Shown here piece after piece: positions 37,855 to 61,163 of a stretch of 64,000 bases of DNA. The notes beneath the pieces were generated by a model that saw only the letters and a list, made by a program, of their open reading frames with translations, did no database searches and was not told where the DNA came from. Within the stretch, counting starts at the first letter, position 1. Each line of letters starts with the position of its first letter. The DNA lies in the NCBI GenBank assembly GCA_029862005.1, contig JAOTYD010000008.1, positions 4,472-68,471 on the forward strand, in the 5' to 3' direction. The position numbers and the translations under genes were made by a program. The DNA is from Gammaproteobacteria bacterium (GTDB lineage Bacteria > Pseudomonadota > Gammaproteobacteria > GCA-001735895).

Positions 37855-39312
37855 TTACAGAGCCGACTCGTTCACAGTTTGCCGTATCAGGGACCATAGC
37901 TTTTCAACATGCTCACGGGTGGTAGCTTCAACTCCGATCGAAACCCTTACCATCCAGCGATCGTCGAGCATCGATGGGCTCATAAAGGCTACCCCGGATT
38001 GATTGATGGCGTTAACCCAGGCGAGGGTATGGCGATCCAGCGCTTCACCTTCGATGCCGGGTGGTTCATGGCGAATGCAGACGGTTTGCAATTTGACCGG
38101 TGCCAGCACGTGCCAGTCTTCGGTGGCGGCAACCGTTTCGGCAAACCAGCGCGCGTTTTCGAGATCGCGTCGCAGGCGGGTGCGAATCGATTCGATACCA
38201 TCGATGCCGAGGTGATACCAGAGTTTGAGCGCGCGGAACCGACGCCCCAGCGGTATACCCCAGTCGCGGTATTGCCGGACTTCGTCATCGACGTTCGAAC
38301 GCAGGTAACTGGGATTGGTCGACATGACCCGCACCAGGTGCTGCACGTCACGCACGTACATCAGCGAGCAGTCGAGGATCGTTCCCATCCACTTATGAGG
38401 ATTCCAGGAGATGGAATCGGCTGCTTCTACACCCTCCCAGAGGTGACGGCATTCGGGTAACAGCATCGCACTGCCGGCCATGGCGGCGTCGACGTGTAAC
38501 CAGATATCGTATCCCGCCGTTATCTCGGCGATTTCGGCAACCGGGTCGAAAGCGGTGACACTGGTTGAGCCCACCGAAGCGACCACGGCCACCGGTAGGT
38601 ATCCGTTGGCGATGTCGGTTACAACTTGTTCCGCGAGACTCTCTGCTTGCATGGAGTGACTTTCGGGGTCCATTGCGACCATGCGCAGGTTGTCGCTACC
38701 GATTCCGGCCAGTAGCGCCGCCTTGACCACCGACGAGTGTGCCTCGGCAGTGGTATAGATCACAAGCGGTTTGTCAGCACCCTGCAGCCCTCCACGATTC
38801 TGCGCGTAGTTGCTGGCTCGTTCACGCGCCAGTAACAGTGAAGTCAGGCATGAAGTCGACGCGGTATCATGAATGCATCCCTCCCAGTTTTCGGAGAGCC
38901 CGGTGAGCTGGCGCATCCAGTCACAGACGACTTCCTCGACTTCGGTCAATGATGGGCAGCTTTCCCAGGAAATACCCAGCGCCCCAAGACCCGAACTCGC
39001 GATATCACCCAACACCGAGGCTAGTGCTGCGTTGGAGGGAAACCAGCCATAATGCATCGGGTGTTGTACCAGCGTGATTCCCGGCAATACACGCTGTTCC
39101 AGTTCACGCAGCAGTTGCTCGGGTGCCAACGGTGCTTCAGGTGCACTGGCGGGAAAGCTACGCCTGATGTTGCCGGGTTCAACCTGGGCTCGAACCGGCC
39201 GCTGCTCCAGGTTCGTACGGTAGTCGGCAATCCAGTCGATCAACTCGTGGCCGGCGTGGCGAAATTCTTCGGGTGTCATAAGTTTACTCGAATCGCTGTA
39301 GAAGGGTTTCAA
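37855..39312 (-). CDS. Group II PLP-dependent (aromatic) amino acid decarboxylase
   Basis: SWNPHKW PLP-lysine motif; 485 aa. Confidence 0.85.
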   Translation of the reverse strand: MKPFYSDSSKLMTPEEFRHAGHELIDWIADYRTNLEQRPVRAQVEPGNIRRSFPASAPEAPLAPEQLLRELEQRVLPGITLVQHPMHYGWFPSNAALASVLGDIASSGLGALGISWESCPSLTEVEEVVCDWMRQLTGLSENWEGCIHDTASTSCLTSLLLARERASNYAQNRGGLQGADKPLVIYTTAEAHSSVVKAALLAGIGSDNLRMVAMDPESHSMQAESLAEQVVTDIANGYLPVAVVASVGSTSVTAFDPVAEIAEITAGYDIWLHVDAAMAGSAMLLPECRHLWEGVEAADSISWNPHKWMGTILDCSLMYVRDVQHLVRVMSTNPSYLRSNVDDEVRQYRDWGIPLGRRFRALKLWYHLGIDGIESIRTRLRRDLENARWFAETVAATEDWHVLAPVKLQTVCIRHEPPGIEGEALDRHTLAWVNAINQSGVAFMSPSMLDDRWMVRVSIGVEATTREHVEKLWSLIRQTVNESAL

Positions 39313-39370
39313 ACTCCGGATTTTCAGGTATCGTTGGTTTTTGAGTCAATCAGTATTATTCAGCCAGACA

Positions 39371-40083
39371 TGAACCACGCTATCAGGGTTGCGATTCTGG
39401 ATGCGGTGCCCGAGAGTTTCTGGGCGGACGATCTTGGAATTACGGACGCGCAAAAATTCATAGATTTGTTGCAACCGTTGAACGCCTCCGCGCGTTTCGA
39501 GGTTTACTACACGTCGAAAAACCAGTTTCCCGATAGCATCGATGACTATGACGCAATCCTGGTGACTGGCAGTCCCTGCAGCGTCCACGATGATCATGAC
39601 TGGATTCGCGAATTGATTGATCTTACCCGGGTCGCGAACAGCAAGGGATTAAGGGTGATTGGATCCTGTTTCGGCCACCAGCTGGTGGCGCGGGCCTTTG
39701 GGGGTGAAGTAGGATTTAACGAGAATGGCTGGATGATTGGAAACTATTCTATGCGTATTACCAACCGTTATGACTGGATGCAGCCTGTTGCAAGCATCAC
39801 CGGCCTGTATCATTTTAACCAGGAACGCGTAACCCGTTTGCCGGAAGCGGCGGAGCCTTTTGCGCACACCGAGGAATATGTCGATTACGGCTTTACGCTG
39901 GGAGATAATATCATGTGTTTCCAGGGTCATCCCGAGCAACCCCTGCGCGCGATGGTAAATTTTCTGAAGGCAACCGATAGCCTTTCGCCCGATGAGCAAG
40001 CCAGGGCCACTCGCTATATTCATGACGGTGAGCCCGACTCGCACATCTGGGCGGAGTGGATGATGCGCTTTTTTATCGCCTGA
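39371..40083 (+). CDS. Class I glutamine amidotransferase-like protein (GATase1)
   Basis: GSCFGHQLVA Cys-His active-site block. Start at MNHAIRV, because the long upstream ORF overlaps the decarboxylase. Confidence 0.7.
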
Positions 40084-40402: not shown

Positions 40403-41980
40403 TTACCAGCGGCCGATGATGATACCCCGGGATTCATCCCGCCCGGGACCCATGGCTGCCAGGTCGTCATACGATGCACCAACGCGGGGTTTCAATCGAC
40501 GACGCGAATCGATCAGCAGTTGCCGCATATCCCTGCGAATTTTACTGTGGTCCAGGTCCTCGCCGAGATCGTTTAACTCATTCGGATCTCTCTGCATATC
40601 GAACAGCTGGGGTCGATACAGGTTATGGTGAATATATTTCCAGCGTTGATCACGGACCATGGTTGCGCGGCAATCATAGGGCGCGATATCGAGCAGGGTT
40701 CGAGGCCCGCGGTCCGAATAATCGATCTCACTTAAAGCGTACTGCCGCCAGTCGGCTGGCGCGCTATGTGATCGTAGTAGCGGCATCAGCGAACATCCTT
40801 CGACTCGCTCGTGGCAGATATTGCCACCAGCGAATTCGATAAACGTCGGCAACAGGTCAATCGCCTCGACCATCTCGTTGCAGACGCTACCGCGGGTTTC
40901 ATCGGCGGTCGCGTTTGGGTTGACGATGATCAACGGGATTTTTACCGAGGCTTCGTGGAACAGGTCTTTTTCTCCAAGCCAGTGATCACCCAGGTATTCA
41001 CCGTGATCACTGGTGAACACCAGCATCGTTTTTTCGAAGATACCGGTTTGTTTCATGTATTCGAACAGGCGCCCCAGTTGATCATCGATCTGTCGAACCA
41101 GGCCCATGTAAACCGGAATAACACGTTCGCGCACATCTTCACGCGCGAAGCTCTCGCTGTATTCCTGCTCCATAAAGGCCCGGTAAACCGGATGCGGGTT
41201 GTGTAACTCCTTGTCGGAACGCACCACAGCCTGGACATCCTCGCCGCTATAGAGGTCGTGATACGGTGCGGGAGCGATCAATGGCCAATGTGGCTTGATA
41301 TAGGAGAGGTGCAGACACCAGGGATTATCGTCCTCTTGCTGTTCCAGGAAATCGATCGCCCGGTTGGTTAAAAAAGTAGTCTCCGAATGCGCTTCGTCAA
41401 CCCGCGACGGGTAGACCGAGTTACGCAGTCTCCAGCCTGAGCGAATATTGCCATCTTTGTCTTCGCCGCTATTGGCGTATTCCTGCCACGGATTTTTGCC
41501 GGCGTAACCGGCGCGATTAAGAAATGTGGTATAGCCGTGGTTGTCAGGCAAACTTCCGTCCGGATATAAACCTTCGTGCAGCTCGAAAGGTTCGTAACCG
41601 CCGCTGCCGGAATGCCACATAGAGTCAGATTCGGATGTAACGCCGAGCGACTCCATTGCTGCGGCACTTTTCCGGTTGTGAGCTTTGCCTACCAATGCGC
41701 TGCGATATCCCGAGGGTCTCAGGTAATCGGCGATCGTCAGTTCGTCCACTCGCATCGGGTCTTCGTTGGCCATTACCCCGTGGCTGGACTGGTAACGCCC
41801 GGTATAAAAACTGGCACGCGACGGGCCGCAGATCGGCGCCTGGCAATATGCATTGTCAAAACGCACACCGCGTGCGGCCAGTGAATCGATGTTCGGAGTA
41901 TGGAGTTTCAGGTGCCCGTAGCAGGACAGGTAGTCCCACCGTAGCTGGTCGCACATGATGAACAGAATATTTCGCGGCAT
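40403..41980 (-). CDS. Cys-type sulfatase (arylsulfatase / choline-sulfatase-like)
   Basis: N-terminal LFIMCDQLRWD and formylglycine motif CGPSRASFYTGR. Confidence 0.85.
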   Translation of the reverse strand: MPRNILFIMCDQLRWDYLSCYGHLKLHTPNIDSLAARGVRFDNAYCQAPICGPSRASFYTGRYQSSHGVMANEDPMRVDELTIADYLRPSGYRSALVGKAHNRKSAAAMESLGVTSESDSMWHSGSGGYEPFELHEGLYPDGSLPDNHGYTTFLNRAGYAGKNPWQEYANSGEDKDGNIRSGWRLRNSVYPSRVDEAHSETTFLTNRAIDFLEQQEDDNPWCLHLSYIKPHWPLIAPAPYHDLYSGEDVQAVVRSDKELHNPHPVYRAFMEQEYSESFAREDVRERVIPVYMGLVRQIDDQLGRLFEYMKQTGIFEKTMLVFTSDHGEYLGDHWLGEKDLFHEASVKIPLIIVNPNATADETRGSVCNEMVEAIDLLPTFIEFAGGNICHERVEGCSLMPLLRSHSAPADWRQYALSEIDYSDRGPRTLLDIAPYDCRATMVRDQRWKYIHHNLYRPQLFDMQRDPNELNDLGEDLDHSKIRRDMRQLLIDSRRRLKPRVGASYDDLAAMGPGRDESRGIIIGRW

Positions 41981-42009
41981 TACACAGAATCCAATGACGT
42001 TATCTCCGC

Positions 42010-42110
42010 CGAAGCGGGGATCTCTAACTGATTGGCTACCAGTTTATACAAGATTCCCGCTTTCGCGGGAATGACTTTTTATGATCGTAAAGTCATTAAT
42101 CCTTGTATAG
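42010..42110. repeat. REP/MITE-like nested palindrome, site C (TATACAAG ... ATTCCCGC-TTTC-GCGGGAATGAC ... AATGACTTT-N10-AAAGTCATT ... CTTGTATA)
   Basis: Three nested perfect inverted repeats plus GCGGGGATC upstream. Lies between the permease and the sulfatase. Confidence 0.5.
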
Positions 42111-43025
42111 CCGCGGGTTGAATACATCGCGCAGGAAGTCTCCCATCAGGTTGATCGCGATGACGATGACGACCAGGAAGAAGCCGGGGATCAACGTGAT
42201 CCACCAGGATCCCGAGTAAAGGTACTCCTTGCCAATGCTGATCAGCGAGCCGAGGCTGGGCTCGGTGACCGGCATACCGAGGCCGAGAAATGAAAGAGCC
42301 GCTTCGGTAATAATCGCGTTGGCGATTTGTACGGTAGCGATGACAAATATTGGGGACAGGCAGTTCGGCAAAATGTGTTTGAACATGATGCGAATTGGCC
42401 CAAAGCCCATCACGTGCGCGGCATCGACATATTCCTTTTCTTTTTCTCCGAGCACCGATGAGCGCACCGTGCGGGCAACTTGCGGCCATTCGGCTAGTCC
42501 GATAACGAGAATCAGGATCAGCATCGCCCAGTTACTGTAGGTTTCGCCGCCGAAGGCATTTTTAACGATGGCAAGAACGATGATAGCCACCATCAGCGTC
42601 GAAAACGACAGCTGCACATCCGCGATTCGCATCAGTATGTTATCGACACGACCGCCGATGTAACCCGATACCAGGCCGATGACGATGCCAATTGCAGCCT
42701 GCAGTAATACCGCGAATATACCGATCAGCAGTGACACGCGCATGCCATAGAGAATCGTGCTCCAGAGGTCGCGTCCCTGGTCGTCGGTGCCGAGTAAAAA
42801 ACGTTGGTCCGCTCCCTCGAACCAGACTGGCGGCATTTCTGAATCCATCAGGTCGATTTGTGTCAGATCGTATGGATCGAACGGCGCGATCAGCGGCGAG
42901 AACAACGCCATCAGTGCCAAAATCAGGAACAGAGAACTCGCAGCAATTGCGATTTTGTCGCGCTTGTAATAATGCACCAGGTCGGATTGCAGCATTTGCT
43001 GCCATCGCGTCGTGACTGCGTTCAT
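42096..43025 (-). CDS. Opp/Dpp-type ABC transporter permease (DppC-like)
   Basis: N-terminal OppC-type extension and the permease signature region. Confidence 0.85.
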   Translation of the reverse strand: MNAVTTRWQQMLQSDLVHYYKRDKIAIAASSLFLILALMALFSPLIAPFDPYDLTQIDLMDSEMPPVWFEGADQRFLLGTDDQGRDLWSTILYGMRVSLLIGIFAVLLQAAIGIVIGLVSGYIGGRVDNILMRIADVQLSFSTLMVAIIVLAIVKNAFGGETYSNWAMLILILVIGLAEWPQVARTVRSSVLGEKEKEYVDAAHVMGFGPIRIMFKHILPNCLSPIFVIATVQIANAIITEAALSFLGLGMPVTEPSLGSLISIGKEYLYSGSWWITLIPGFFLVVIVIAINLMGDFLRDVFNPRLYKD

Positions 43026-44002
43026 TGCCTGCGCCCAACCAGATCAACCATTGGGTTGATCACACCATAAAGCAGATCGACTAGCGTATTGACAACGACG
43101 AACAGGAAACCGACAAACATAATGTAGGCGGTGATCAGCGGGATGTCGGAGCGGTTAACCGCTTCGAGAAACATGAATCCCATCCCCGGCCACTGAAACA
43201 CCGACTCGGTCAATATCGTGTAGGCGACCATGATGCCGATTTGCACACCGCCGACGGTAATCACCGGCAACATCGTATTTTTAAGGGCATGCTTGAGGTA
43301 AACCGGCATCGCGGACAGGCCCTTGGCGCGTGCGAACTTGACGTATTCGGAACTTAAGACTTCGAGCATTTCTGCACGTACCAGACGAATAAACAGCGGC
43401 AGCATGATGGATGACAGTGCAATTGCCGGCATGATGATATGCACGATGCCGTCCCAGCTGGCGAAATTGGTACTCCAGTAAGCCCACACCTGTACCACCT
43501 CACCGCGGCCGAAAGAGGGCATCCAGCCCAGCGTGATCGAAAAAATGAATATCATCGCCAGTGCGGTAAGGAATACCGGGATTGATATACCGACGACACT
43601 AACCGCCATGGTAAAACGGCTAAACCAGTGGCGCGGCTTGATCGCGCAAAAAACGCCCATCGGAATCGACACGAATATGATGATCAGCGACGCGGCGAAC
43701 GAAAGCTCGAGCGTAGCCGGCAGCTTTTTGAGGATGACGTCGAGTGTCGGCTCCTTGAAAAAATAGGAAGTACCGAGGTCCCCCTGCAGCGCGCGGGTGA
43801 TAAAACGGCCGTATTGTACCAGTAGTGGATCGTTGAGACCCAGTGATTCGCGCAGGTTGGCGCGCTCCACTTCCGACATCGACATGGCAGCCAGTTCCCG
43901 GGTCGGATCGCCCAGCGTGTCCTGGATCGAAAAACAGAACAGGCTGATGATGAGCATCACGATCGCCGCCTGCAAAACTCTTCTGAGCAGGAACTGGATC
44001 AT
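43022..44002 (-). CDS. Opp/Dpp-type ABC transporter permease (DppB-like)
   Basis: Typical DppB-like N-terminus MIQFLLRRVLQA; six TM helices. Confidence 0.85.
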   Translation of the reverse strand: MIQFLLRRVLQAAIVMLIISLFCFSIQDTLGDPTRELAAMSMSEVERANLRESLGLNDPLLVQYGRFITRALQGDLGTSYFFKEPTLDVILKKLPATLELSFAASLIIIFVSIPMGVFCAIKPRHWFSRFTMAVSVVGISIPVFLTALAMIFIFSITLGWMPSFGRGEVVQVWAYWSTNFASWDGIVHIIMPAIALSSIMLPLFIRLVRAEMLEVLSSEYVKFARAKGLSAMPVYLKHALKNTMLPVITVGGVQIGIMVAYTILTESVFQWPGMGFMFLEAVNRSDIPLITAYIMFVGFLFVVVNTLVDLLYGVINPMVDLVGRRQ

Positions 44003-44069
44003 GTTACGAGAAAATACTCCGGGCGGAAATCGCCCGGAGCAGGTTATCGGGAGCTGATGACGAAGTCAT

Positions 44070-45626
44070 CTAGTTGATGACGAGATCACCCAAGTACGGG
44101 AAGTTGAGCGCGTTTACGATTGGATCGATGTTAACGCCCTTGCGTGCCGCCCAGGCGAGGTTTTGCCAGTGCAGCGGGACAAACCCGGCGTCCTGGTAAA
44201 TCTTGGCCTCGATGTCCTGTAGCATTTTCGCGCGCTTGGTGGAATCGGTTTCAGCGTTTGCCATCATGGTATTCTTATCGACGTAGTCGCTACTATAGTT
44301 ACCCGAATTGTAAACACCCATGCCGGTGCTCTGATCCGGGGTCATCGCCAGGAACTCGAAAAAGTTGGCGCTGTCCTCGGTGTCGGAATGCCAGCCGATC
44401 ATCATGATATCCGCGGCGCGGTCGTCGAATGCAGGCCAGTATTGCGCCTTGGGCATGGTTTGCAGATCGACCTTGATGTTGATTTTTGACAGCATCGTGG
44501 CAACCGCCTGGGCGATTTTATCGTCATTAACGTAACGATTATTCGGCGCCATCATGGTGACGCTGAAGCCATTCTCGTAACCCGCGTCTTTCATCAGCTG
44601 TTGGGCGAGTTTTAGGTCAAAGCGGGGTTTGAGTTTGGGATTGTAACCGAGATAACCCGCGGGGCTCATCTGGCCGGCCGTGGTCGCAAAACCTTTCATG
44701 ATTTTTTGGACGATGGCCTCGTTATTAACCGCATGAACGATTGCCATGCGGACGCGCTGATCGCGAAACTCGGGACGACGTTCCTGGTTCATCTGAAACG
44801 TGATGATACGCGTGCCGGGCATTGTGACCAGATCAGCGTTGCTGGCTGAGCGAATCTGGTCGAAGTCATTTGGCGATACCGGCGCGATGAAATCTACATC
44901 ACCGGAGAGCAGCGCTGCAACCCGTGTTTGCTCATCCTTGATCGGTGTAAAGATAATGCGATCAACATTACCGGGAGAACCTTTGTCCCAGTAATTCGCA
45001 AAACGCTCGAAGACGATTTTAACGCCCTGTTCACGTGAAGTTACCTTAAACGGACCGGTTCCGGACAGGTTGGTTGAGGCAAACGATGCGCCATTTTTAA
45101 CGATCGCGCCCTTGTCGTTACCGTTGGCATCGGTTCCGGTGTAAAACTTGCTGTCCATCGGGAAAATGTAGGTCGCAGTATGCAATACCAACGGGTAAGG
45201 GCCGCTGGTTACCAGGTCGATGGTGTGATCGTCGATCACATTGAGCTCGGTGAAATTGGCAAATATGCCCTTGAAATCGGGACTCACCTTGAGGCGATCG
45301 AAGGTCCATTTAAAATCCGCTGCGGTCATCGGGTTGCCACTGTGGAACTTGACGCCCTTGCGCAGGTTAAAGCGCACCGTGGTCGGATTAAGGCGCTTGT
45401 AGCTGGTCGCCAGTCGATTTTCAAATGCCAGGTCCTTAGTCCAGCGGATCAGCGGATCAAAGGACATATGTGAGAGTTGTAAAATACCGCCGGATAATTG
45501 CTCGTGAATATCCAAAGTCACCGGATCGGCGTCATAAGCAAGCCTTAGATCTTTTGCATTTGCCGTGGTGAAGGATAGCAGGCTCGCCATCACCAGGCAG
45601 GTAGTAAGTAGAAAACGATTTTTCAT
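44070..45626 (-). CDS. Family-5 (peptide/opine/nickel) ABC substrate-binding protein
   Basis: Signal peptide; SBP_bac_5 length and blocks. AAGGAG Shine-Dalgarno upstream of the start. Confidence 0.85.
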   Translation of the reverse strand: MKNRFLLTTCLVMASLLSFTTANAKDLRLAYDADPVTLDIHEQLSGGILQLSHMSFDPLIRWTKDLAFENRLATSYKRLNPTTVRFNLRKGVKFHSGNPMTAADFKWTFDRLKVSPDFKGIFANFTELNVIDDHTIDLVTSGPYPLVLHTATYIFPMDSKFYTGTDANGNDKGAIVKNGASFASTNLSGTGPFKVTSREQGVKIVFERFANYWDKGSPGNVDRIIFTPIKDEQTRVAALLSGDVDFIAPVSPNDFDQIRSASNADLVTMPGTRIITFQMNQERRPEFRDQRVRMAIVHAVNNEAIVQKIMKGFATTAGQMSPAGYLGYNPKLKPRFDLKLAQQLMKDAGYENGFSVTMMAPNNRYVNDDKIAQAVATMLSKINIKVDLQTMPKAQYWPAFDDRAADIMMIGWHSDTEDSANFFEFLAMTPDQSTGMGVYNSGNYSSDYVDKNTMMANAETDSTKRAKMLQDIEAKIYQDAGFVPLHWQNLAWAARKGVNIDPIVNALNFPYLGDLVIN

Positions 45627-45706
45627 GGTGGATACTCCTTCAGTCATTTGTCATTGGTTATGCCTACAGCAGTTTTATTGAAAAAAACCGAAAAATTTTT
45701 ATATTA

Positions 45707-47425
45707 TTAGTGTGTTATATCTTCATGCTCATAAATACTATCGAATCGCGGCATTAGCGCAAGTAGCTCGATGCTGTATTCGTTTCGCGGGCTTTCGAAA
45801 AAATCTTCGCAATCCGCAGTCTCAAGTATGCGCCCACGGCGCATGATTGCAACCCGATCACACATTTGGCGGATGACTGGCAAGTCGTGACTTATAAACA
45901 GCATGGTCAGACCAAGTTCGTCCTGCAAGTCCTTCAACAGGTTCAATATCTGTGCCTGCACCGATACGTCGAGCGCCGAAGTCGGCTCGTCGCAAATTAA
46001 AAGTCGAGGCCTGCTCGCGAGTGCCCGGGCGATTGATATACGTTGGCGTTGACCACCCGAGAATTCGTGTGGGTAGCGACGCCCCATCTGGCGACCCAGG
46101 CCCACGTGGTCGAGCAGATCGCCGACGATCTGGCTGACTTCCTGGGGTGGCGCAAGTCGATGAAACAGGATCGGCTCGGCGATGATATCGTTAACCTTCA
46201 TGCGCCCATTGAGCGATGAGTAGGGATTCTGGAACACCATTTGCATTTGCAGTCTGGCTTGTTTTACGGCTTCATGGTCCGGGTTATTAAACAATTCAAC
46301 TCCGTCGAACCGGATCGAACCGCTGTTGGGTTGCTGCAATCCGGCCACCATGCGGGCAATCGTGGATTTGCCTGATCCGCTTTCGCCGACCAGCCCGAAT
46401 GACTCTCCCTGTTTGATGGTCAGATTGACATCCTGGGTGGCTTGCAGGTATCTACGGTTCTTTTCGAGAAACGCATCGCGTGTAATAAACCGCAGGTTCA
46501 GATTTTCGATTTCGAGGAGGTTTTCACCACCCCCATGTCTCGTGCTCTGCCCCAGCCAGTGGGTAGAGACATCGATATGCTTGAGACCCTTGGCGGTGGT
46601 TTCGATATATTCAACCAGTGGAAAGCGATCAACCTTGATCGTCGATCTAGGTACGGCGCTGATCAGGCTCTTGGTATAGTCGTGTTTTGGCGCGGTCAAA
46701 ACCTGAGCGGTCTTCCCGATCTCTACCAGCTTACCGCGATACATGACTGCGACGCGGTCGGTCACGCTTGCGATGACGCCCATATCGTGAGTTACCAACA
46801 GGCAACCGACCTGGCGTTCCTGGCACAGGCATCGAATCAATGAAAGGATCTGGTCTTGTACCGATACGTCCAGTGCAGTAGTGGGTTCGTCGGCGATCAA
46901 TAACTCGGGTTCGCCGGCGAGCGCGATCGCAATCACGACACGCTGACGCATGCCGCCCGAAAACTGATGCGGAAATTGCTTGATGCGAATTTCGGGATCG
47001 GGGATGCCAACCTGGTCGAGCAGATCGATCGCGATCCGCAAAGCTTCTTTCTGACTGTCAACGCTGAGATTGGTAAGAATGGTCTCGATCAACTGATTTT
47101 CAACGGTGAACAGCGGATTCAGCGATGTCATCGGGTCCTGAAAAATGAAACCCACGCGCGAGCCCCGAACCTTTAAAATTTCCTTGTCGGTGAAAGTAGA
47201 GATCTTGGTATCGTTGAGGTATATGTCGCCTTTTGACACCCGACCCGGTGGGCTAAGCAATTGTACGATACCGTTGCCGATAGTTGATTTACCGGCGCCT
47301 GATTCACCCACGAGCCCCAGAATTTCACCGGCTTCGAGATCAAAACTGACGTCTTCGACTGCATAATCGGTTTCGTATCGGCCGGGGAATTCGATACTTA
47401 GATTTTTTATACTTAACAGCGGCAT
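45707..47425 (-). CDS. Fused double ATPase subunit of an Opp/Dpp-type ABC transporter (DppD+DppF fusion)
   Basis: Two Walker A motifs (GLVGESGAGKST, GLVGESGSGKST) and two LSGG signatures. Confidence 0.85.
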   Translation of the reverse strand: MPLLSIKNLSIEFPGRYETDYAVEDVSFDLEAGEILGLVGESGAGKSTIGNGIVQLLSPPGRVSKGDIYLNDTKISTFTDKEILKVRGSRVGFIFQDPMTSLNPLFTVENQLIETILTNLSVDSQKEALRIAIDLLDQVGIPDPEIRIKQFPHQFSGGMRQRVVIAIALAGEPELLIADEPTTALDVSVQDQILSLIRCLCQERQVGCLLVTHDMGVIASVTDRVAVMYRGKLVEIGKTAQVLTAPKHDYTKSLISAVPRSTIKVDRFPLVEYIETTAKGLKHIDVSTHWLGQSTRHGGGENLLEIENLNLRFITRDAFLEKNRRYLQATQDVNLTIKQGESFGLVGESGSGKSTIARMVAGLQQPNSGSIRFDGVELFNNPDHEAVKQARLQMQMVFQNPYSSLNGRMKVNDIIAEPILFHRLAPPQEVSQIVGDLLDHVGLGRQMGRRYPHEFSGGQRQRISIARALASRPRLLICDEPTSALDVSVQAQILNLLKDLQDELGLTMLFISHDLPVIRQMCDRVAIMRRGRILETADCEDFFESPRNEYSIELLALMPRFDSIYEHEDITH

Positions 47426-47599
47426 TTGCTATTTGGCCTTGATTTTTAGCTGCTTGGGCGAAACGGGATGCTAACGCGCTCGTCAATAAATTGCTACTTC
47501 TCAGGGCTGCCGATCAACTGTGCCTTCAGGTTATAGGGCCAGGCATTTGTGATTCCGGTAAGCATTAAATAATTAGACCGGTAGAATCGAATCTTTAAA

Positions 47600-48337
47600 C
47601 TAGTACCGTAAACGGTGTTGGTACAGGATTTCATAGGATGGGCGTGCGTGTAACGCTATCTGTTTATCCTTGTCCGAAAGCGTATATTTTTGTTCGCGAT
47701 AGGGTGCGAACCCGGTCGAGTTGCAGACCGAATCATACCAGTACTTTGCCCAGACCCCGTCGCTATCGCGAGGACCTTTTGGCCAACTGAGCATTTCGGG
47801 TCCAAACTCGATGTCGAGCTTTGTACAGATTGCTTGCAGCATGGTAGCCGGGTCCAGCAGGAACTCGCGGCTATCGATGACCAGGGGGATCTCGCCGGTC
47901 ATGGCGCGCACCTGATCGAATAACTCGGCCTGCTGGATGAAGCCGATATCCTCCAGCGTCGCGTCACTGCGCACCGCGGCATAGGACGTTATTACCGCTT
48001 CGGGTTCGCGGATCAGGAAACAGTTGACCATTTCGGATAGCCAGTCACGCTCGATTTCCGGTAACAGGTGCAGGGTCATGTGTTTCTGGTAGAAGATCTG
48101 CTTACCTCCCGGTATGGCGCCGGTGCAACGCTCGATGATCGCGTCAACGTCGGTGCCCTGGGCTTCAATCACTTCAGCCGCGCCCGGGTGTGGTAAACCG
48201 GTTGCCTGCAGGTAATAACCATACAAGGGCTCATCCCACACGACGCAATCGTTTCGATTCTCCCAGGCGCGCATCAACGCGGTCGAGATATTGCGGGGTC
48301 CCGACCACATCGCAATACGCAGTGGGGTTACGCGCAT
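47600..48337 (-). CDS. Putative PAPS-dependent sulfotransferase-family protein
   Basis: 5'-PSB-like loop SGPRNISTALMR and 3'-PB-like REPEAVITS. Weak motif-level call only. Confidence 0.4.
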   Translation of the reverse strand: MRVTPLRIAMWSGPRNISTALMRAWENRNDCVVWDEPLYGYYLQATGLPHPGAAEVIEAQGTDVDAIIERCTGAIPGGKQIFYQKHMTLHLLPEIERDWLSEMVNCFLIREPEAVITSYAAVRSDATLEDIGFIQQAELFDQVRAMTGEIPLVIDSREFLLDPATMLQAICTKLDIEFGPEMLSWPKGPRDSDGVWAKYWYDSVCNSTGFAPYREQKYTLSDKDKQIALHARPSYEILYQHRLRY

Positions 48338-49248
48338 TCCTGCTCGAGCATCGCGAGGTAAAGCTGCTGCAGTTTTTCGACCATTGGGCCGCGTTTGCCG
48401 TCACCGATGGTGCGGCCATCGATTTCGCGCACCGGTGCCAGGCCTGCAAAAGTGCCGGTCACGAAGGCTTCGTTTGCGCTGTAAACATCGGTCAGGCTGA
48501 AATTTTTCTGCCTCACCGGGATCTGGTTCTGCTCGCACAACTCGATTACCTTGCCGCGGGTTATGCCACCCAGGCAGTAATCGCCTGTCGAGGTCCACAC
48601 CTCATCCTTGCACACGATAAAAAAATGGGTCGAGTTACAGGTGGCGACAAAGCCATGGGGGTCGAGCATTAACGCCTCGTCGGCCCCGGCCTTGGCGGCC
48701 TGGATGCAGGCGGTAATGCAGTTCAGCTTGGAGTGACTGTTGAGCTTCGGATCCTGCACGTCGGGATAGCCGCGGCGCACGTGGACCGTGAACAGCTTGA
48801 TGCCCTTGCACGCGGTCTCGGGGAGTGCCTGCTTGTACTCCGGAATAATCACGATGGTGGGGGCTGTGATCGTAACGCGGGGATCCTGGTAGGGTGTCGC
48901 CTTGATCCCGCGCGACACCATGAGCCGGATGTGAACGCCATCCTGCATGTTGTTTTTTTCAAGCAGGCGGTAGAGGCGTTCGCCGAGTTCCGCGGCAGTT
49001 AATTCCATTTCCATATCGAGCGCTTTTGCGCCTGCATATAACCGCTCGAGGTGTTGCTCGAGAAACGCGATCTTGCCCCGGTGTACGCGCAATCCTTCCC
49101 AGACGCCATCGCCAAGCACGAAGCCGCTGTCGAACACCGATACTCTGGCCTCGTCACGTGCAAAAAATTCACCATTGATATCGATGAAGATGTCCGCGTT
49201 GCGCGGATCGTCCTGATACTCGTGAGTACCCTTGGTCTGACTATTCAT
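48328..49248 (-). CDS. Class IV PLP-dependent aminotransferase (branched-chain / D-amino-acid type)
   Basis: Aminotran_4 fold blocks (EGLRVHRGKIAFL, catalytic region TCNSTHFF). Confidence 0.8.
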   Translation of the reverse strand: MNSQTKGTHEYQDDPRNADIFIDINGEFFARDEARVSVFDSGFVLGDGVWEGLRVHRGKIAFLEQHLERLYAGAKALDMEMELTAAELGERLYRLLEKNNMQDGVHIRLMVSRGIKATPYQDPRVTITAPTIVIIPEYKQALPETACKGIKLFTVHVRRGYPDVQDPKLNSHSKLNCITACIQAAKAGADEALMLDPHGFVATCNSTHFFIVCKDEVWTSTGDYCLGGITRGKVIELCEQNQIPVRQKNFSLTDVYSANEAFVTGTFAGLAPVREIDGRTIGDGKRGPMVEKLQQLYLAMLEQECA

Positions 49249-49798
49249 CGGTGCTTCCTAATTCAAATTCCTCGCCCATACTCGAAATGCTCAGGTAAAC
49301 GGCACCATCGCGTTCAGTTTCATCCGCGAGATTGAGCAGGTCGTAAAAAGCGCTGCGGCTGATCAGTGCATCCAGGCCTTCGCGAAAATGTACATAGGGT
49401 CGAGGTTGGTTGGTGTTCGTGTCGATATCGACACGAACAGGGTGATCGCGATCGACGATGATTTGTTCACTTGTGTTGGTGGTAAACACGATTGCCTGTT
49501 GACCATTTTCCTCGATGCGATCGACCAGGTTTGCAACAAACGGCGCATCGTCCACCTGGATGCGCAGTTTTTCGGCGGGCGTGACGAGGAAGTACTCGTC
49601 ACCTTCGCGACGCAGAATCCCGGCAAACAGCTTCACCATGGAATCGCGCCGGAATGGGCGCCCCTCATGAAACCAGTTGCCATCGGCTGCGATACGGATA
49701 TCGATCTCGCCCTGATTTCGAGGATTCCAGTCACGCCTCGCCGCCCGGGTTGTTTCACTGGTCCTGATATTGGCGAGAATTTGATCGAGTTGGGACAT
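49241..49798 (-). CDS. Hypothetical protein (possibly DUF1285-like)
   Basis: No recognisable catalytic motif. Overlaps the downstream aminotransferase by 8 nt. Confidence 0.45.
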   Translation of the reverse strand: MSQLDQILANIRTSETTRAARRDWNPRNQGEIDIRIAADGNWFHEGRPFRRDSMVKLFAGILRREGDEYFLVTPAEKLRIQVDDAPFVANLVDRIEENGQQAIVFTTNTSEQIIVDRDHPVRVDIDTNTNQPRPYVHFREGLDALISRSAFYDLLNLADETERDGAVYLSISSMGEEFELGSTDE

Positions 49799-49977
49799 GC
49801 GTGTTTGTTTAATTTAACCAGCCACGATGTTATCCCCGGCGTGGATTAATGTCATCCTGTGCTTCGAGCCGCTACAAATGATCGGTGCTCGCACTGAACT
49901 GCCGGTTTTTCGAGACGGCTCACGCGATCTATCGAAAACGAATCAGTTAATCTATACTTTTACCACTTGCGCCATCC

Positions 49978-50733
49978 ATGAGGAAACAATCCACCATGAA
50001 ACGCAGAGGATTCGTCAAGCTGTGTGCGTCAGCGCTCGCCAGCATTACCGCCAGTCCCCAGTTACTGGCCCGGGAGAATCATGTTTATCATCGATACGGC
50101 AAGGTTGCCCTGATCGATCCCAATAGTGGTGAACCGATGCGGGCGGCGTCGCTGAACGTGGGAGAGGCTTACCTGTTCCACTACCCGTTTGTGTCCACGC
50201 CGTGTTTTCTCATAGACCTGGGCAAGTCAGTCACAACCCGAAGTAATCTCAAGACCCGCGACGGCGAGCTCTATCGGTGGCAGGGCGGGTCGGGGCAAAA
50301 AAACTCGGTGGTTGCATTCTCCGCGATTTGTGCGCACAAGATGAGCCACCCGGCACCATCTGTAAGCTTTATCAACTATCGGCATGGAAAAGTCAGGTTT
50401 CGTAACAGCAATGATGAACTCGAACAACGCGCCGGCGTCATATACTGCTGTTCGGAAAACAGCGTGTATGATCCCGCACATGGGGGTCGAGTACTCGGGG
50501 GCCCGGCACCGCAGCCGCTGGCTTCAATTGAGCTGGAATACGACAGGAGTGAAGATATCTTTTACGCTACCGCCACGATTGGCGGCGAAATGTTCGACCG
50601 TTATTTCAGGAATTTCCACGATCGGCTGGTACTGCAACACGGTCGAACCGATATCGATCGGGCATTGACCGGGACCACCGACCTGGTGCGACTCAGGGAT
50701 TACACCGAAAACCAGGTGAGCTGCCAGGCTTGA
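49978..50733 (+). CDS. Tat-exported protein with a degenerate Rieske-like Cys/His pattern
   Basis: Twin-arginine motif KRRGFVKL; CAHKMSH but no canonical second CXXH box. Confidence 0.5.
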   Translation: MRKQSTMKRRGFVKLCASALASITASPQLLARENHVYHRYGKVALIDPNSGEPMRAASLNVGEAYLFHYPFVSTPCFLIDLGKSVTTRSNLKTRDGELYRWQGGSGQKNSVVAFSAICAHKMSHPAPSVSFINYRHGKVRFRNSNDELEQRAGVIYCCSENSVYDPAHGGRVLGGPAPQPLASIELEYDRSEDIFYATATIGGEMFDRYFRNFHDRLVLQHGRTDIDRALTGTTDLVRLRDYTENQVSCQA

Positions 50734-53080: not shown

Positions 53081-54349
53081 TTAAAGGGACCAGTCGAAGA
53101 ACTGGATATTGACTTCGTCACCGGCCTCGACGCCGTCGTTTTCATCGGGCAGTACGATAAAGCAGTTGGCGCGGCTCATCGACGTCAGGATACCGGATCC
53201 CTGTTTGCCGGTTTTGCTGACCTGCCATTCGTTATTGTCGTCCAGCATGGCGATACCGCGCTGGAACTCGTAGCGCCCCGGCTTCTTGCGCATCGCATCG
53301 AGTGCACGCGCGCGAAACAATGCCGGGCGTCTGGATTTGGCGCCGGCCAGAGCATCGATCGCGGGCACCACGAACTGGCTGAAGGTCACCATTACCGCGA
53401 CCGGGTTACCGGGTAAACCCATGAAAATGCTGGCGTCGATCTGGCCAAAGGTCAACGGTCGCCCCGGCTTGATCGCGATTTTCCAGAACTCGGTCGTACC
53501 GAGTTCTGACAGTGCCGGCCTGATGTAGTCGGCCTCCCCGACCGAAACACCACCGGTGCTGATGATCAAATCAGCCCGCTTCGATGCATTATCGAGCACT
53601 TCGCGCATGGCTGTGGGTTCATCCTTGACCACGCCGAGATCGATGATGTCGACTGCCATGGGCGATAGCATGCCGTGCAGGCTATAGCGATTACTGTCAT
53701 AAATCTTGCCCGGCTCGAGCTTTTCACCAATTGAGACCAGCTCGTCGCCGGTGGAGAAAAATGCGACTACGGGTTTGCGCTTGACCTGGAGTTGACCAAT
53801 GCCCAGCGATGCCAGCACGCCGATATCGGCCGGGCTGAGTCTGACGCCAGCGTCAATCACGATTTCACCGCGGGCAACGTCCTCGCCGGCCAGGCGGATA
53901 TTTTCACCGACCCGATGATCAGAATCGACCCGAATCCTGCCGGTTTCGGTAATTTCCACCTGCTCCTGCATGATCACCGCGTCGGTACCCTCGGGTACCA
54001 GTGCCCCGGTCATGATGCGCACGCATTGTCCTGGGCCACAGTCACCACTAAACGGGGTGCCCGCAAAAGCCGTGCCGACTTCTTCAAGCTCGGTAATTTC
54101 CCCTTTTGACAGGCTGTCGATGGCAACCGCAACCCCGTCCATTGCTGAATTAGGCAGCGGCGGAACGTCATGCGGGGACTTGACGGCTTCATTGTTTACG
54201 CGGTCAAGGCACTCACGAATCGGCAGGCGCTCGCAGGCGTGGACCGGTAGTACGCGTTCCTGGATTTTGTTTAACGCATCGCCGAGGCTGATCGATTCCG
54301 GGTCGAAGGGATCTGCACAGCTGGGCGCGGAAGAAATTTTGTTGCTCAT
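53081..54349 (-). CDS. moeA: Molybdopterin molybdenum/tungsten transferase MoeA
   Basis: MoeA N and C domains; ISTGGVSVGEADY motif. Confidence 0.85.
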   Translation of the reverse strand: MSNKISSAPSCADPFDPESISLGDALNKIQERVLPVHACERLPIRECLDRVNNEAVKSPHDVPPLPNSAMDGVAVAIDSLSKGEITELEEVGTAFAGTPFSGDCGPGQCVRIMTGALVPEGTDAVIMQEQVEITETGRIRVDSDHRVGENIRLAGEDVARGEIVIDAGVRLSPADIGVLASLGIGQLQVKRKPVVAFFSTGDELVSIGEKLEPGKIYDSNRYSLHGMLSPMAVDIIDLGVVKDEPTAMREVLDNASKRADLIISTGGVSVGEADYIRPALSELGTTEFWKIAIKPGRPLTFGQIDASIFMGLPGNPVAVMVTFSQFVVPAIDALAGAKSRRPALFRARALDAMRKKPGRYEFQRGIAMLDDNNEWQVSKTGKQGSGILTSMSRANCFIVLPDENDGVEAGDEVNIQFFDWSL

Positions 54350-54591
54350 GAAACGGAGTGTAGTCGCTTAGGAGCGTAATTGAGGCACAGACAGGGTAAA
54401 AATGGTAGGGGTAACACCATTTTTTTGTGGCTGCGGCCAATCCTTTTAGTAAAGTGGATTAAATTTAGGGCTTGGGGCTATAAAAGCAGCGGCGAGAGTG
54501 GTATTTTTACGCCTTGACCGAAAGCGTTCCAGCGGGATCAAAGAGCCGTGTTCCGGCGGGAATGACAATAACGACACAATCGGAGGATACA

Positions 54592-55071
54592 ATGCAGAAA
54601 TCCCTTAACATCGATCCCGGGAAGTGTACCGGCTGTCTCCAGTGCGAAATGGCCTGCTCCTACGAGCACACGGGGACCTTTAATCCATCTCGATCGTACA
54701 TCAAGGTATTCACTTTCCACCAGGAAGGGAGGTTTGCACCCTATACCTGCACCCAGTGCGATGAAGCCTGGTGTATGCGGGCCTGTCCGGTTGACGCCAT
54801 CAGCGTCGATATGGCCACCGGTGCCAAGGTAATCTCCGATGACAAGTGTGTCGGCTGCAAGGTCTGCACCATCGCCTGCCCGTTCGGTACCGTCAACTAC
54901 TCGCAAGCGACCGGCAAGGTCGTTAAATGCGACCTCTGTGGCGGTGACCCGCAGTGTGCGGCAGCCTGTCCTACCGGTGCGATCACCTATGTCGACGCAG
55001 ACTGGACCGGTTACGATCGCATGCTCGCCTCGGCAGCCAAGAGTCTGCCATCCGCCGAAGCAACCGCTTAA
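54592..55071 (+). CDS. aorA: Electron-transfer subunit with four [4Fe-4S] clusters (AorA-like)
   Basis: Four CxxCxxCxxxCP motifs. GGAGGA Shine-Dalgarno upstream of the start. Confidence 0.8.
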   Translation: MQKSLNIDPGKCTGCLQCEMACSYEHTGTFNPSRSYIKVFTFHQEGRFAPYTCTQCDEAWCMRACPVDAISVDMATGAKVISDDKCVGCKVCTIACPFGTVNYSQATGKVVKCDLCGGDPQCAAACPTGAITYVDADWTGYDRMLASAAKSLPSAEATA

Positions 55072-55089
55072 CAATGGGGGTAACGAATC

Positions 55090-56940: not shown

Positions 56941-56991
56941 CCTCGAACCCCTCGCCGCAAGGCGGGGGGTTTTTCCTTAAAGAGCACTGAC

Positions 56992-58242
56992 ATGCAACAT
57001 ATCATCATAGGTGCAGGGCCCGCGGGCGTGGTAGCAGCGGAAACCCTGCGTAAAACAGACCCTGAAGCACAAATCACGATTATCGGCGATGAGCCGGAAC
57101 CGCCGTACTCGCGCATGGCGATCCCGTATTATCTCATTAGAAATATCGATGAAACCGGAACCTACCTGCGTGATCCCGGGACGCATTTCGGCGCCCTGAA
57201 TATCGAAGTCGTGCAGCAGCGCGTCGACAAGATCGACGCCAAGGCGAAATCGGTAACACTGGCCGATGGTAGCTCACACGCTTACGACAAGCTATTGATT
57301 GCCACGGGTTCACATCCAATCAGTCCGCCGATACCGGGGCTCGATTTGCCGCAGGTACATTCCTGCTGGACACTCGAAGACGCGCGCAACATCGTCAAGC
57401 TGGCGCAGTCCGGGTCCAACGTGGTGCTCATCGGCGCCGGCTTTATCGGCTGTATTATCCTTGAGGCACTGGTCAAGTGCGACGTGCATCTTGCCGTGGT
57501 AGAAATGGGTAACCGCATGGTACCCCGCATGCTGGACGAAAAGGCCGGCGGATTGCTTGAATCCTGGTGCAAGAACCAGGGCATCGATGTGCATACCTCC
57601 TGCAGCGTTGACGGGATTGCCGAAGCCGGGGACGAGGTCGAAGTGTCGTTAAGCGATGGCAGCAAGCTGAGTGCCGCGCTGGTGATTACCGCGACCGGGG
57701 TCAAGGCGAATACCGACCTGGTGGAAGATACCGATATCAATATCGACCAGGGCATACTGGTGAACCGGCGCATGCAGACCAGTAATCCGGACGTCTACGC
57801 GGCGGGCGATGTTGCGCAAGGCGTAGATTTTTCTACCGGTAACTTCGAGGTACAGGCGATCCAGCCTACCGCGACCGATCACGGACGTATTGCCGCGCTC
57901 AACATGGCGGGACAGGGCGATGAACATCATGGTACGCTGAACATGAATGTCCTCGATACCGTGGGTTTGGTTTCGTGCTCGTTTGGTCTGTGGATGGGGG
58001 TTGATGGCGGTGAAAGCGCCGAGCTCTATAATCCCGACGAATTTCAGTATATCAACCTGCAGTTCGATGGCGATCACCTGGTTGGCGCCAGCAGCGTCGG
58101 CAAGACCCAGCACGTCGGTGTGCTGCGAGGATTGATCGAGTCGAAGATTCACCTGGGTGAATGGAAAGCCCGATTGATGCAGGATCCGACCGCGATCATG
58201 GAAGCCTATGTCGGCTGTACCCAGGAACTCGGGTATGCCTGA
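56992..58242 (+). CDS. aorC: FAD-containing NAD(P)-binding oxidoreductase subunit (AorC-like)
   Basis: IIGAGPAGVVAAETL and a second Rossmann fold (VVLIGAGFIGCI). Confidence 0.75.
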   Translation: MQHIIIGAGPAGVVAAETLRKTDPEAQITIIGDEPEPPYSRMAIPYYLIRNIDETGTYLRDPGTHFGALNIEVVQQRVDKIDAKAKSVTLADGSSHAYDKLLIATGSHPISPPIPGLDLPQVHSCWTLEDARNIVKLAQSGSNVVLIGAGFIGCIILEALVKCDVHLAVVEMGNRMVPRMLDEKAGGLLESWCKNQGIDVHTSCSVDGIAEAGDEVEVSLSDGSKLSAALVITATGVKANTDLVEDTDINIDQGILVNRRMQTSNPDVYAAGDVAQGVDFSTGNFEVQAIQPTATDHGRIAALNMAGQGDEHHGTLNMNVLDTVGLVSCSFGLWMGVDGGESAELYNPDEFQYINLQFDGDHLVGASSVGKTQHVGVLRGLIESKIHLGEWKARLMQDPTAIMEAYVGCTQELGYA

Positions 58243-58493
58243 TGCAGATCAGCATCGAGTTTTATGCATCGTTGATGAAATACCTGCCGCCGGGTAAGAG
58301 CCGTTTCAGACGCGAAATAAAGGTCGACCAGGGGCTCAAGCTCGCCCGCCTGATTGAACAGTTTCATATCTCGCCCGAGGAGGCACATCTGGTGCTCGTT
58401 AACGGGTTATTCGTCTGTGGCGAAGATCGCGCGGGGTGCGAACTGGTTGAAGGCGACGTCGTCTCGATCTGGCCGCCAGTTGCGGGTGGCTAG
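58242..58493 (+). CDS. MoaD/ThiS-like sulfur-carrier protein dedicated to the AOR cluster (AorD-like)
   Basis: 83 aa ending in GG. ATG overlaps the aorC stop (TGATG). Confidence 0.65.
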   Translation: MQISIEFYASLMKYLPPGKSRFRREIKVDQGLKLARLIEQFHISPEEAHLVLVNGLFVCGEDRAGCELVEGDVVSIWPPVAGG

Positions 58494-58498
58494 GCAAC

Positions 58499-59553: not shown

Positions 59554-59578
59554 TCTTCACCGTTTCGCTTGCAGTTCG

Positions 59579-61148: not shown

Positions 61149-61163
61149 CAGCGGGCGCGAACC

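Follow-up and report, generated by a model that had tools for sequence, protein, structure and literature searches.

Organization of the locus

We analyzed a stretch of 64,000 nucleotides from the genome of an uncultured gammaproteobacterium (assembly GCA_029862005.1, contig JAOTYD010000008.1, positions 4,472 to 68,471), which we call the window, and within it a run of eight minus-strand genes that brings together a sulfotransferase with its fold-type-IV partner, an Opp/Dpp-type ATP-binding cassette (ABC) importer and a formylglycine sulfatase. The features, in the direction in which these genes are read, are the following.

49241-49798, minus strand: DUF1285 gene, 185 aa
48328-49248, minus strand: gene for a fold-type-IV protein (class IV aminotransferase-like, here AT4-like), 306 aa
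47600-48337, minus strand: PF19798 sulfotransferase gene (ST5), 245 aa
45707-47425, minus strand: gene for the fused double ATPase of the Opp/Dpp-type ABC importer, 572 aa
44070-45647, minus strand: gene for a family-5 substrate-binding protein (SBP), 525 aa
43022-44002, minus strand: OppB/DppB-like permease gene (permB), 326 aa, with BPD_transp_1 and BPD_transp_1_N domains
42096-43025, minus strand: OppC/DppC-like permease gene (permC), 309 aa, with BPD_transp_1 and OppC_N domains
40403-41980, minus strand: Cys-type (formylglycine) sulfatase gene, 525 aa
40113-40382, plus strand: gene for a small exported CXXCH (monoheme cytochrome c-like) protein, 89 aa, convergent with the sulfatase gene

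The DUF1285 and AT4-like genes overlap by 8 nt (49241-49248), the AT4-like and ST5 genes by 10 nt (48328-48337), and permB and permC by 4 nt. A gap of 174 nt (47426-47599) separates the ST5 gene from the ATPase gene, and a spacer of 115 nt (41981-42095) separates permC from the sulfatase gene. An earlier sequence-only reading of the window had listed the eight open reading frames (ORFs), the 8- and 10-nt overlaps, the gap (there about 175 nt), the CGPSR motif and the CXXCH protein, and the ORF map and Pfam searches show that gene list to be real.

That reading had gone on to describe the whole as a sulfation/desulfation unit. We favor three juxtaposed modules over one pathway, with the second and third most likely cooperating, and we give this reading as a whole a probability of roughly 0.55. 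Module 1 (49798-47600) would be a translationally coupled operon for DUF1285, a lysine-less fold-type-IV protein and a PF19798 sulfotransferase; the sulfotransferase would use 3'-phosphoadenosine 5'-phosphosulfate (PAPS) to O-sulfate a hydroxylated small molecule, probably an amino-acid-like one, which the partner would bind or transform. Module 2 (47425-42096), the Opp/Dpp-type importer, behaves as a variable cassette, and module 3 (41980-40403) would be a cytoplasmic formylglycine sulfatase of the SpAS1 branch. Working together, the SBP of module 2 would capture a small organosulfate, the importer would carry it inward, and the sulfatase would free sulfate and an alcohol in the cytoplasm.

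About 120 related loci (cited by L numbers) were compared, including 80 from a scan of one genome per species. Synteny was followed by tblastn of the window proteins against 22 close genome loci and 40 metagenome loci, and genes in high-GC loci were called with a criterion of GC content at third codon positions (GC3). The analysis itself shows what the genes are, the fold and motifs of their products, how these are conserved and which indels have occurred.

A sulfatase of the SpAS1 branch

The protein encoded at 40403-41980 matches the sulfatase family PF00884 (4.5e-50) and contains ICGPSR, in which Cys51 (codon 41828-41830) begins the segment C51-G-P-S-R-A-S-F-Y-T-G that aligns with the formylglycine (fGly) site of the SpAS1 structure 4UPI; the Cys-type sulfatase first recognized by its CGPSR is thereby borne out. 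Its score against SpAS1 is 578 bits, and it has no N-terminal signal peptide. K99-A100-H101 aligns with K101-T102-H103 of SpAS1, and Lys and His at these positions mark arylsulfatases, with Tyr and Thr/Asp marking phosphonate monoester hydrolases (PMHs) (PMC5488252). Judged by these features, the protein is predicted to be a cytoplasmic Cys-type enzyme of the SpAS1 arylsulfatase branch. Because the activity of SpAS1 was measured on synthetic 4-nitrophenyl substrates (PMC5488252), its physiological substrate is not identified by those assays.

Two more specific identities were tried and rejected. Against the choline-O-sulfatase model (BetC, TIGR03417) the protein scores 228.3, with a cutoff of 433.45, and choline sulfatases in the PDB reach only about 140 bits, which leaves the earlier suggestion of choline-O-sulfate as substrate without support. 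As a PMH, the protein gets 328 bits from the PehA model against a cutoff of 900, and its active-site signature is of the sulfatase type. A broader version of the second idea is that the enzyme acts physiologically as a phosphonate-monoester or phosphodiester hydrolase of the PMH/PehA kind, on a phosphoester that the Opp-type importer brings in as AccA does agrocinopine. PehA is indeed the best NCBIfam model, among PDB entries the PMHs 2VQR and 2W8S come next after SpAS1, AccA is among the remote PDB matches of the SBP, and the SpAS1 family is promiscuous (PMC5488252). However, these PMHs reach 241 and 222 bits, far less than SpAS1, and the PehA shortfall and the K99/H101 signature point the same way, so that we consider such a physiological role very unlikely.

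The importer

The transporter has the Opp/Dpp-type architecture in all its parts: a family-5 SBP, two BPD_transp_1 permeases with OppB and OppC N-terminal domains, and two ATPases with oligo_HPY, which are fused in one 572-aa protein with two ABC_tran domains. For the ATPase, the best NCBIfam equivalog models (YejF and GsiA) lie far under their cutoffs, and broader subfamily and NikD/NikE models pass. The SBP matches SBP_bac_5 (PF00496, 2e-86) and carries a Sec signal peptide ending ...TANA/KD (the slash marks the cleavage point). It falls far below the cutoffs of all NCBIfam equivalog models, among them GsiB (155 against 594), NikA (120 against 393) and DppA (107 against 1005); on these scores, neither a peptide, nickel, glutathione or opine specificity nor any particular ligand can be assigned. 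The terminator scan marked one feature within the module, which may be an attenuator that gives an excess of SBP transcript over the permeases.

44015-44041, minus strand: 11-bp GC-rich hairpin with a T-run, between the SBP and permB genes

A variable island on a syntenic backbone

Across the relatives, the genes lie on a backbone that runs MoeA, TPR-cyclase, a protein with a Tat-type signal and without a Pfam match, DUF1285, AT4-like, ST5, a 724-aa gene, a variable island, the small cytochrome, GATase, a pyridoxal 5'-phosphate (PLP) decarboxylase and a flavoprotein. The island takes four forms. It holds the full Opp set with the sulfatase gene (for example L005, L083 and L100), an orphan SBP gene with the sulfatase gene (L001, L007, L008, L013, L018 and L081), or the sulfatase gene without a transporter, 15-30 nt after the 724-aa gene (L084, L085, L087, L089, L090, L097, L112 and L114). 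In the fourth form (L014, L015, L019 and L022) the ST5 block and the flanks are kept and no sulfatase homolog was detected.

The 724-aa protein, which has a cNMP_binding domain and a weak metallo-beta-lactamase (MBL) match, is encoded between ST5 and the island in nearly all relatives (for example L003 10850-13024 and L083 2317-4488), and the spacing of 15-30 nt suggests a cNMP/MBL-sulfatase operon in the eight loci of the third form. The gene is lost in the window and in L001. Of the 174-nt gap that stands in its place, no more than the final 85 nt or so resemble the sequence that precedes the ATPase gene in L005 and L100, and we found no promoter or terminator match and no significant structure in it (fold z = +1.0). 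The gap is best read as the scar of the deleted 724-aa gene, and the direct ST-to-Opp adjacency, which results from that deletion, as specific to the window.

A second deletion is recorded in the orphan SBP genes. Their N-termini read M(P/Q)LLSIKN, as specified by the opening eight codons of the ATPase gene, and this stretch is joined in frame to the SBP's own R(F/V)L... signal sequence at a common Lys-Asn (L081 8287-9858 and L001 1373-3082; compare 45626-45647 and 47402-47425 in the window). Such a junction indicates that the orphans arose when the entire ATPase gene was deleted at a Lys-Asn microhomology. The permease genes are missing as well, and the orphan SBP ORFs of all six loci are intact beside the sulfatase gene, at 65-83% identity. 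A second, divergent Opp-like set is found in the island, either a few kb at most from the sulfatase gene or in its place (L081 13902-17256; also L091, L102, L105, L015 and L022). Its SBP is 22-25% and its permeases 36-40% identical to those of the window, and the orphan SBPs may dock with it.

On the far side of the island, the small CXXCH protein has a signal peptide and a CTGCH motif. Its homologs, 54-78% identical, occupy the same place beside the GATase gene and are 2-6 kb from the sulfatase gene in several loci (for example L008, L087 and L114), which makes it, as far as gene order can tell, a conserved neighbor of the GATase gene without an evident link to the sulfatase.

Probable association of the importer with the sulfatase

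In relatives without the repetitive extragenic palindromic (REP)-like insert of the window (L083, L082 and L111), the stretch from permC to the sulfatase gene is just 28-37 nt long. More distant, plasmid-borne homologs of the sulfatase (47-52% identity) adjoin binding-protein-dependent importers in eight of the nine loci inspected, Microbulbifer being the only one without such an importer. Five of them have a tripartite tricarboxylate transporter (TTT): R. pomeroyi (the SpAS1 locus), Nitratireductor, Variovorax RA8, Paracoccus albus and Sulfitobacter mediterraneus, where a gene for the formylglycine-generating enzyme (FGE) is also adjacent. A tripartite ATP-independent periplasmic (TRAP) importer takes this place in Marinovum, Paroceanicella and Pseudosulfitobacter. 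Uptake by the importer followed by cytoplasmic desulfation is the best-supported reading of modules 2 and 3, and it is the most economical because a cytoplasmic sulfatase needs its anionic substrate imported. The modules would then be functionally coupled and might be co-transcribed, with an organosulfate as the putative transporter ligand. Uptake and desulfation of a sulfated compound, as the sequence-only reading had proposed, thus fits the gaps, the orphan SBPs and the importer neighbors; choline-O-sulfate as the compound has no support.

The 115-nt spacer between permC and the sulfatase gene forms a nested palindrome (-41.2 kcal/mol, z = -4.4), whose transcribed strand lacks a U-run, and contains no terminator or promoter match; a simple promoter/terminator scan of both key gaps (47426-47599 and 41981-42095) gave nothing above shuffled expectation. 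The two 20-mer arms of the palindrome are single-copy in the window, and two 12-mers recur at 13686-13730 as weak partial matches (E = 0.33 each). L104 and L005 have relatives of the spacer in the same position, and L012, L085 and L081 have them elsewhere. The earlier label of a REP site is plausible and is partly borne out by the strong nested hairpin and the copies at several loci of relatives; within the window there is only the weak partial second match. We take the spacer for a probable REP-type insertion, not for a terminator.

Several observations count against a partnership of importer and sulfatase. The sulfatase persists without an adjacent transporter in eight loci and therefore has no strict need for this importer. 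In L098-L103 and L091 the permC-sulfatase gap is about 600-670 nt or 5 kb, in the window the structured element lies between the two genes, and no similarity of the SBP is diagnostic of a known ligand class. All this would suit a locus in which the two are unrelated: the importer would take in common peptides, opines or metal chelates, with the sulfatase as a stand-alone scavenger located by chance in the same insertion hotspot. We regard that alternative as unlikely, since the 28-37 nt gaps, the six loci that keep the SBP gene alone and always beside the sulfatase gene, the repeated pairing of distant homologs with SBP-dependent importers and the requirement of a cytoplasmic sulfatase for import of a charged substrate all speak against it. 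For uptake followed by desulfation, it is a further difficulty that the importers beside the distant homologs are TTT or TRAP systems and not Opp. The sulfatase gene also follows the ST5 block in most loci of the clade, sometimes 15-30 nt after the cNMP/MBL gene, and some regulatory or metabolic ST5-sulfatase link is possible. Because the 174-nt gap contains no terminator or promoter match, read-through from ST5 into the Opp genes is possible in this genome. Finally, motif and Pfam scans of the 64-kb window found no FGE, CysC or CysDN gene and no PAPS-synthesis genes.

The 245-aa protein is a predicted PAPS-type sulfotransferase

ST5 matches Sulfotransfer_5 (PF19798) at E = 3e-55, its 187.5 bits lying well above the cutoff of 23.2. 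The protein was modeled with AlphaFold2 from 32 homologs (pLDDT 90.5, pTM 0.89) and the model was searched against the PDB with Foldseek. All 18 matches with E < 2e-4 are PAPS-dependent sulfotransferases, at the top the sulfotransferase (ST) domains of CurM and of olefin synthase (OLS), the tyrosylprotein sulfotransferases TPST1/2 and 3-OST, with an Alicyclobacillus ST also among them; the first P-loop kinases come in at about E = 2e-4. Among 81 ST5 sequences from several phyla, W11-S12-G13-P14-R15-N16, S18-T19, D35, K85, H90, R110, P112 and S118 are invariant. The 5'-phosphosulfate-binding (5'-PSB) loop is P14-R15-N16-x-S18-T19 and the 3'-phosphate-binding (3'-PB) element comprises R110 and S118; the 3'-PB segment FLIREPEAVITS aligns in phmmer with HLVRHPYAVIES of OLS-ST. 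The motifs quoted in the sequence-only reading, SGPRNISTALMR and REPEAVITS, are both present. Profile match, predicted fold and invariant PAPS-loop motifs agree in predicting a PAPS-type sulfotransferase, from which we infer PAPS use itself. The earlier call of a PAPS-sulfotransferase-like protein is in this respect confirmed, structure prediction and Foldseek having given the sulfotransferase fold.

The PF19798 family has 3,907 representatives at 50% identity (E <= 1e-3). Our literature search met it only in lists of Pfam families and found no characterized member. In NCBI the identical protein and several homologs are named HAD family hydrolase, a name at odds with the Pfam match, the predicted fold and the motifs; it is probably a misannotation that has been copied from record to record.

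A fold-type-IV partner without the catalytic lysine

The AT4-like protein belongs to Aminotran_4 (PF01063, 149 bits, E = 2e-43) and stays under all NCBIfam cutoffs for branched-chain aminotransferases (BCATs), D-amino-acid transaminases (DAATs) and aminodeoxychorismate lyases (ADCLs): its best score is 254.5 against 363 for PRK08320, with 208.8 against 245.6 for ilvE_I and 158 against 277 for the D-amino-acid transaminase model. In an alignment with the archaeal BCATs 5MQZ, 5CM0 and 5E25, Asn170 (codon 48739-48741) stands at the column of the catalytic Schiff-base Lys, the BCAT segment niKslnyln lying opposite klNshskln. This column is never Lys in 66 ST5-linked homologs; it is Asn in 42 of 42 encoded upstream of ST5 and His in 24 of 24 encoded downstream. 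The family has no invariant Lys elsewhere, K116 alone being near-invariant and K168 and K174 not conserved. Kept residues of the cofactor site include R69, T230-R231 and T266, which bind the phosphate in canonical enzymes, and the acidic residue of ADEA/ADDA. Because R69, T230-R231 and T266 are retained, a cofactor may still bind; a standard transaminase mechanism is nevertheless unlikely. The designation as a class IV aminotransferase therefore survives for the fold (PF01063) but not for the chemistry, given Asn170 in place of the catalytic Lys and equivalog scores all below cutoff, and the annotation of ST5 partners as branched-chain amino acid aminotransferases is doubtful.

Distribution of the AT4-like/ST5 pair

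ST5 homologs with 48-88% identity were found in 80 loci of the species scan, from Gamma- and Alphaproteobacteria, Verrucomicrobiota, Planctomycetota, Actinomycetota, Chloroflexota and one archaeal metagenome-assembled genome (MAG). An AT4-like gene lies directly beside ST5 on the same strand in 67 of these (43 upstream, 24 downstream), often with stop and start codons overlapping by 4 nt. It lies within 1-4 kb in three more and is absent in six, and in four the contig ends early. Pfam searches of 102 ORFs flanking the pair in 58 loci outside the clade of the window found no third family in more than four loci, and the most frequent ones (ThrRS and MutS, at most 4 loci) are attributable to closely related genomes; the same 102 ORFs include no PAPS-synthesis, sulfatase or transporter gene. 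The pair, broad in phyla, is self-contained, because adjacency to the AT4-like gene is near-constant and no other family recurs beside the two. No ST5-AT4 fusion occurs in the 80 loci or in the best 150 of the 3,907 representatives. The plant BCAT-like proteins At5g27410 and At3g05190, for which the literature search yielded nothing, are candidates for a fusion of this kind. Other joinings do occur: ST5 is fused to PhyH, an Fe/2-oxoglutarate dioxygenase, in one alphaproteobacterial MAG (L060 10001-11968), a PhyH gene directly follows ST5 in a Rhodobacteraceae MAG (L075 10004-10735 and 10515-11996), and one 400-aa representative (P0238) is an ST5::Nudix fusion.

These data bear on the idea of a single sulfation/desulfation unit, in which both enzymes would act on the same or related metabolites and share the importer, for example in a cytoplasmic sulfate-ester cycle or in making a sulfated osmolyte or signal and taking it up again. 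In its favor, the ST5 block and the sulfatase gene are neighbors in most members of the gammaproteobacterial clade despite repeated indels between them, and no terminator match separates ST5 from the Opp genes in the window. Outside the clade, however, a tblastn search of the 58 ST5 loci (at least 50% coverage, E <= 1e-10) detected no sulfatase or Opp homolog, and the 102 flanking ORFs show neither family as a recurrent neighbor. Within the clade, the four loci of the fourth island form keep the ST5 block and flanks without a detected sulfatase homolog, the 724-aa gene normally intervenes, and unrelated flanks (MoeA, TPR-cyclase, GATase and decarboxylase) are equally syntenic. The distant sulfatase homologs, for their part, pair with importers and not with sulfotransferases. 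Because the island is gained and lost while the backbone stays syntenic, ST5-sulfatase linkage is no stronger than linkage to unrelated neighbors. We think a single unit distinctly unlikely. Since those flanks are equally syntenic and the sulfatase can be missing while the ST5 block stays, the ST5-sulfatase adjacency appears to reflect shared ancestry and an indel hotspot rather than a demonstrable functional unit. What remains of the original proposal is that the genes for a predicted sulfotransferase and a Cys-type sulfatase are real and that uptake with desulfation fits; the functional link between the two enzymes is not supported.

For the pair itself, we entertain a more speculative scheme, which we rate as rather unlikely: the AT4-like/ST5 pair would be a widespread, undescribed two-protein enzyme system in which sulfation makes a hydroxyl a leaving group and the partner carries out a non-transaminase chemistry with PLP or pyridoxamine 5'-phosphate (PMP), such as elimination or replacement. 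In some lineages a fused or adjacent PhyH-type dioxygenase (L060 and L075) would install the hydroxyl. Two precedents make such a scheme plausible: the structurally closest sulfotransferases, those of CurM and OLS, are activating ones, and in the PMP-dependent dehydratases ColD and E1 the catalytic Lys is replaced by His, the residue that the H-type partners also carry.

The DUF1285 protein carries both domains at full length (PF06938, 8e-29, N-terminal; PF21028, 5e-27, C-terminal). Its homologs precede AT4/ST5 in L002-L022 and in many metagenome loci, all of the window's clade, and none was detected in L023-L080 (tblastn, E <= 1e-10). A nucleotide-derived ligand has been proposed for DUF1285, and Nudix neighbors are reported for most family members (PMC2954208). 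Because of these Nudix neighbors, the ST5::Nudix fusion P0238 and the shared operon with ST5, DUF1285 could be an accessory that binds PAPS or 3'-phosphoadenosine 5'-phosphate (PAP). Upstream of its gene there is one weak promoter match, in a region where the number of matches is not above shuffled expectation.

49827-49855, minus strand: sigma-70-like promoter match, ATGACA-17-TAACAT, 9/12

A 251-aa protein without a Pfam match (49978-50733) is the conserved divergent neighbor of the DUF1285 operon, and its close homolog in L002 opens with a twin-arginine-like signal (MKRRGFVKL...).

Other features of the window

Beyond the locus, three regions deserve mention. A 343-aa GATase ORF (39052-40083) shares 261 nt with the convergent PLP-decarboxylase gene (37855-39312). 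The Pfam match of the GATase is confined to residues 159-299 and the ORF of a relative has 237 aa (L007); translation probably begins some 100 codons further in. A dense molybdenum/tungsten-cofactor cluster extends over 53081-63660, with MoeA, a 4Fe-4S protein, an aldehyde:ferredoxin oxidoreductase (55090-56940), a flavoprotein, a ThiF/MoeB-like protein, MobB, MobA, MoCF_biosynth, FdhD and MoaA. At 17907-20285 lies the gene for a 792-aa multiheme cytochrome c with MtrC/MtrF-like and c7/c3-like motifs, whose 3' end is overlapped by a TPR-protein ORF (17131-17997).

Comparison with known systems

The importer and sulfatase part is a new member of a known design. Its Opp-type transporter joins the systems by which marine-sediment bacteria possibly take up organosulfates, and for the SpAS1 family, so far mainly a model of enzyme promiscuity, the gene neighborhoods provide a genomic clue to a physiological role, namely, the hydrolysis of small anionic esters that enter via SBP-dependent importers. 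The pair of the lysine-less fold-type-IV protein and the PF19798 sulfotransferase is uncharacterized and is the more interesting lead. In this large family (about 3,900 clusters at 50% identity) the Asn/His replacement in the partner tracks gene order exactly, and the chemistry of the pair, once worked out, could assign functions to both families.

The logic of modules 2 and 3 resembles that of the Pseudomonas atsRBC-atsA genes, in which SBP-dependent organosulfate uptake precedes cleavage by a cytoplasmic formylglycine sulfatase. These genes encode an ABC importer for sulfate esters and a cytoplasmic Cys-type arylsulfatase; the transporter is of the taurine/nitrate family, not Opp/Dpp. SpAS1 of Ruegeria (Silicibacter) pomeroyi (4UPI) is the closest counterpart of the sulfatase, with a full-length match at roughly 50-55% identity that begins at residue 2, the same Cys-to-fGly motif and K-x-H signature, and no extra N-terminal (signal) segment in either protein; the SpAS1 locus adjoins a TTT (TctABC) importer, whereas the window sulfatase adjoins Opp. 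GsiB/YliB (1UQW), DppA (1DPP), AgaA (6HLX) and AccA (4RA1 and 8C6R) share the SBP_bac_5 family and Opp/Dpp-type architecture with the window importer, but they are remote from its SBP (at most 140 bits), and none of their ligands is transferable.

Among sulfotransferases, the best structural matches of ST5 are the activating domains of CurM and OLS (4GBM and 4GOX) and the tyrosylprotein sulfotransferases (3AP1 and 5WRJ), with E = 4e-8 to 1e-5 and template modeling (TM) scores of about 0.45-0.57. All have in common with ST5 the 5'-PSB (P-R-x-x-S/T-T) and 3'-PB (R...S) PAPS-binding elements, although identity is only 11-18%. ST5, with its 245 aa, stands alone as an enzyme, and its partner is a fold-type-IV protein instead of a polyketide synthase thioesterase. 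The DUF1285 structures SPO0140 and Sbal_2486 (2RE3 and 2RA9; PMC2954208) have both domains, as the window protein does; the neighbors reported there are Nudix proteins, whereas here, in one clade only, the partner is the AT4-like/ST5 pair.

The closest solved relative of the AT4-like protein is an "aminotransferase, class 4" of Variovorax paradoxus B4 (7Z79; 312 bits, about 58% identity over 297 residues), for whose function our literature search found no paper. Like the window protein, it has Asn at the catalytic-Lys column and the motifs WEG(L/V)R, H-x-RLMV-(S/T)-RG-x-K and GADEALMLD; it has Arg where the window protein has K168 and K174. In the alignments shown, 7Z79 differs from 9J32 solely by N->K at the catalytic-Lys column, which looks like an engineered restoration of the Lys. 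The gene in V. paradoxus B4 (L130 5001-5954) and its homolog in Ralstonia syzygii (L132 5001-5936) belong to clusters of ABC_tran, AT4-like, SBP_bac_3, two permeases and GntR, with no sulfotransferase nearby, and this polar-amino-acid-type ABC cluster around the lysine-less gene suggests an amino-acid-like ligand for the lysine-less protein.

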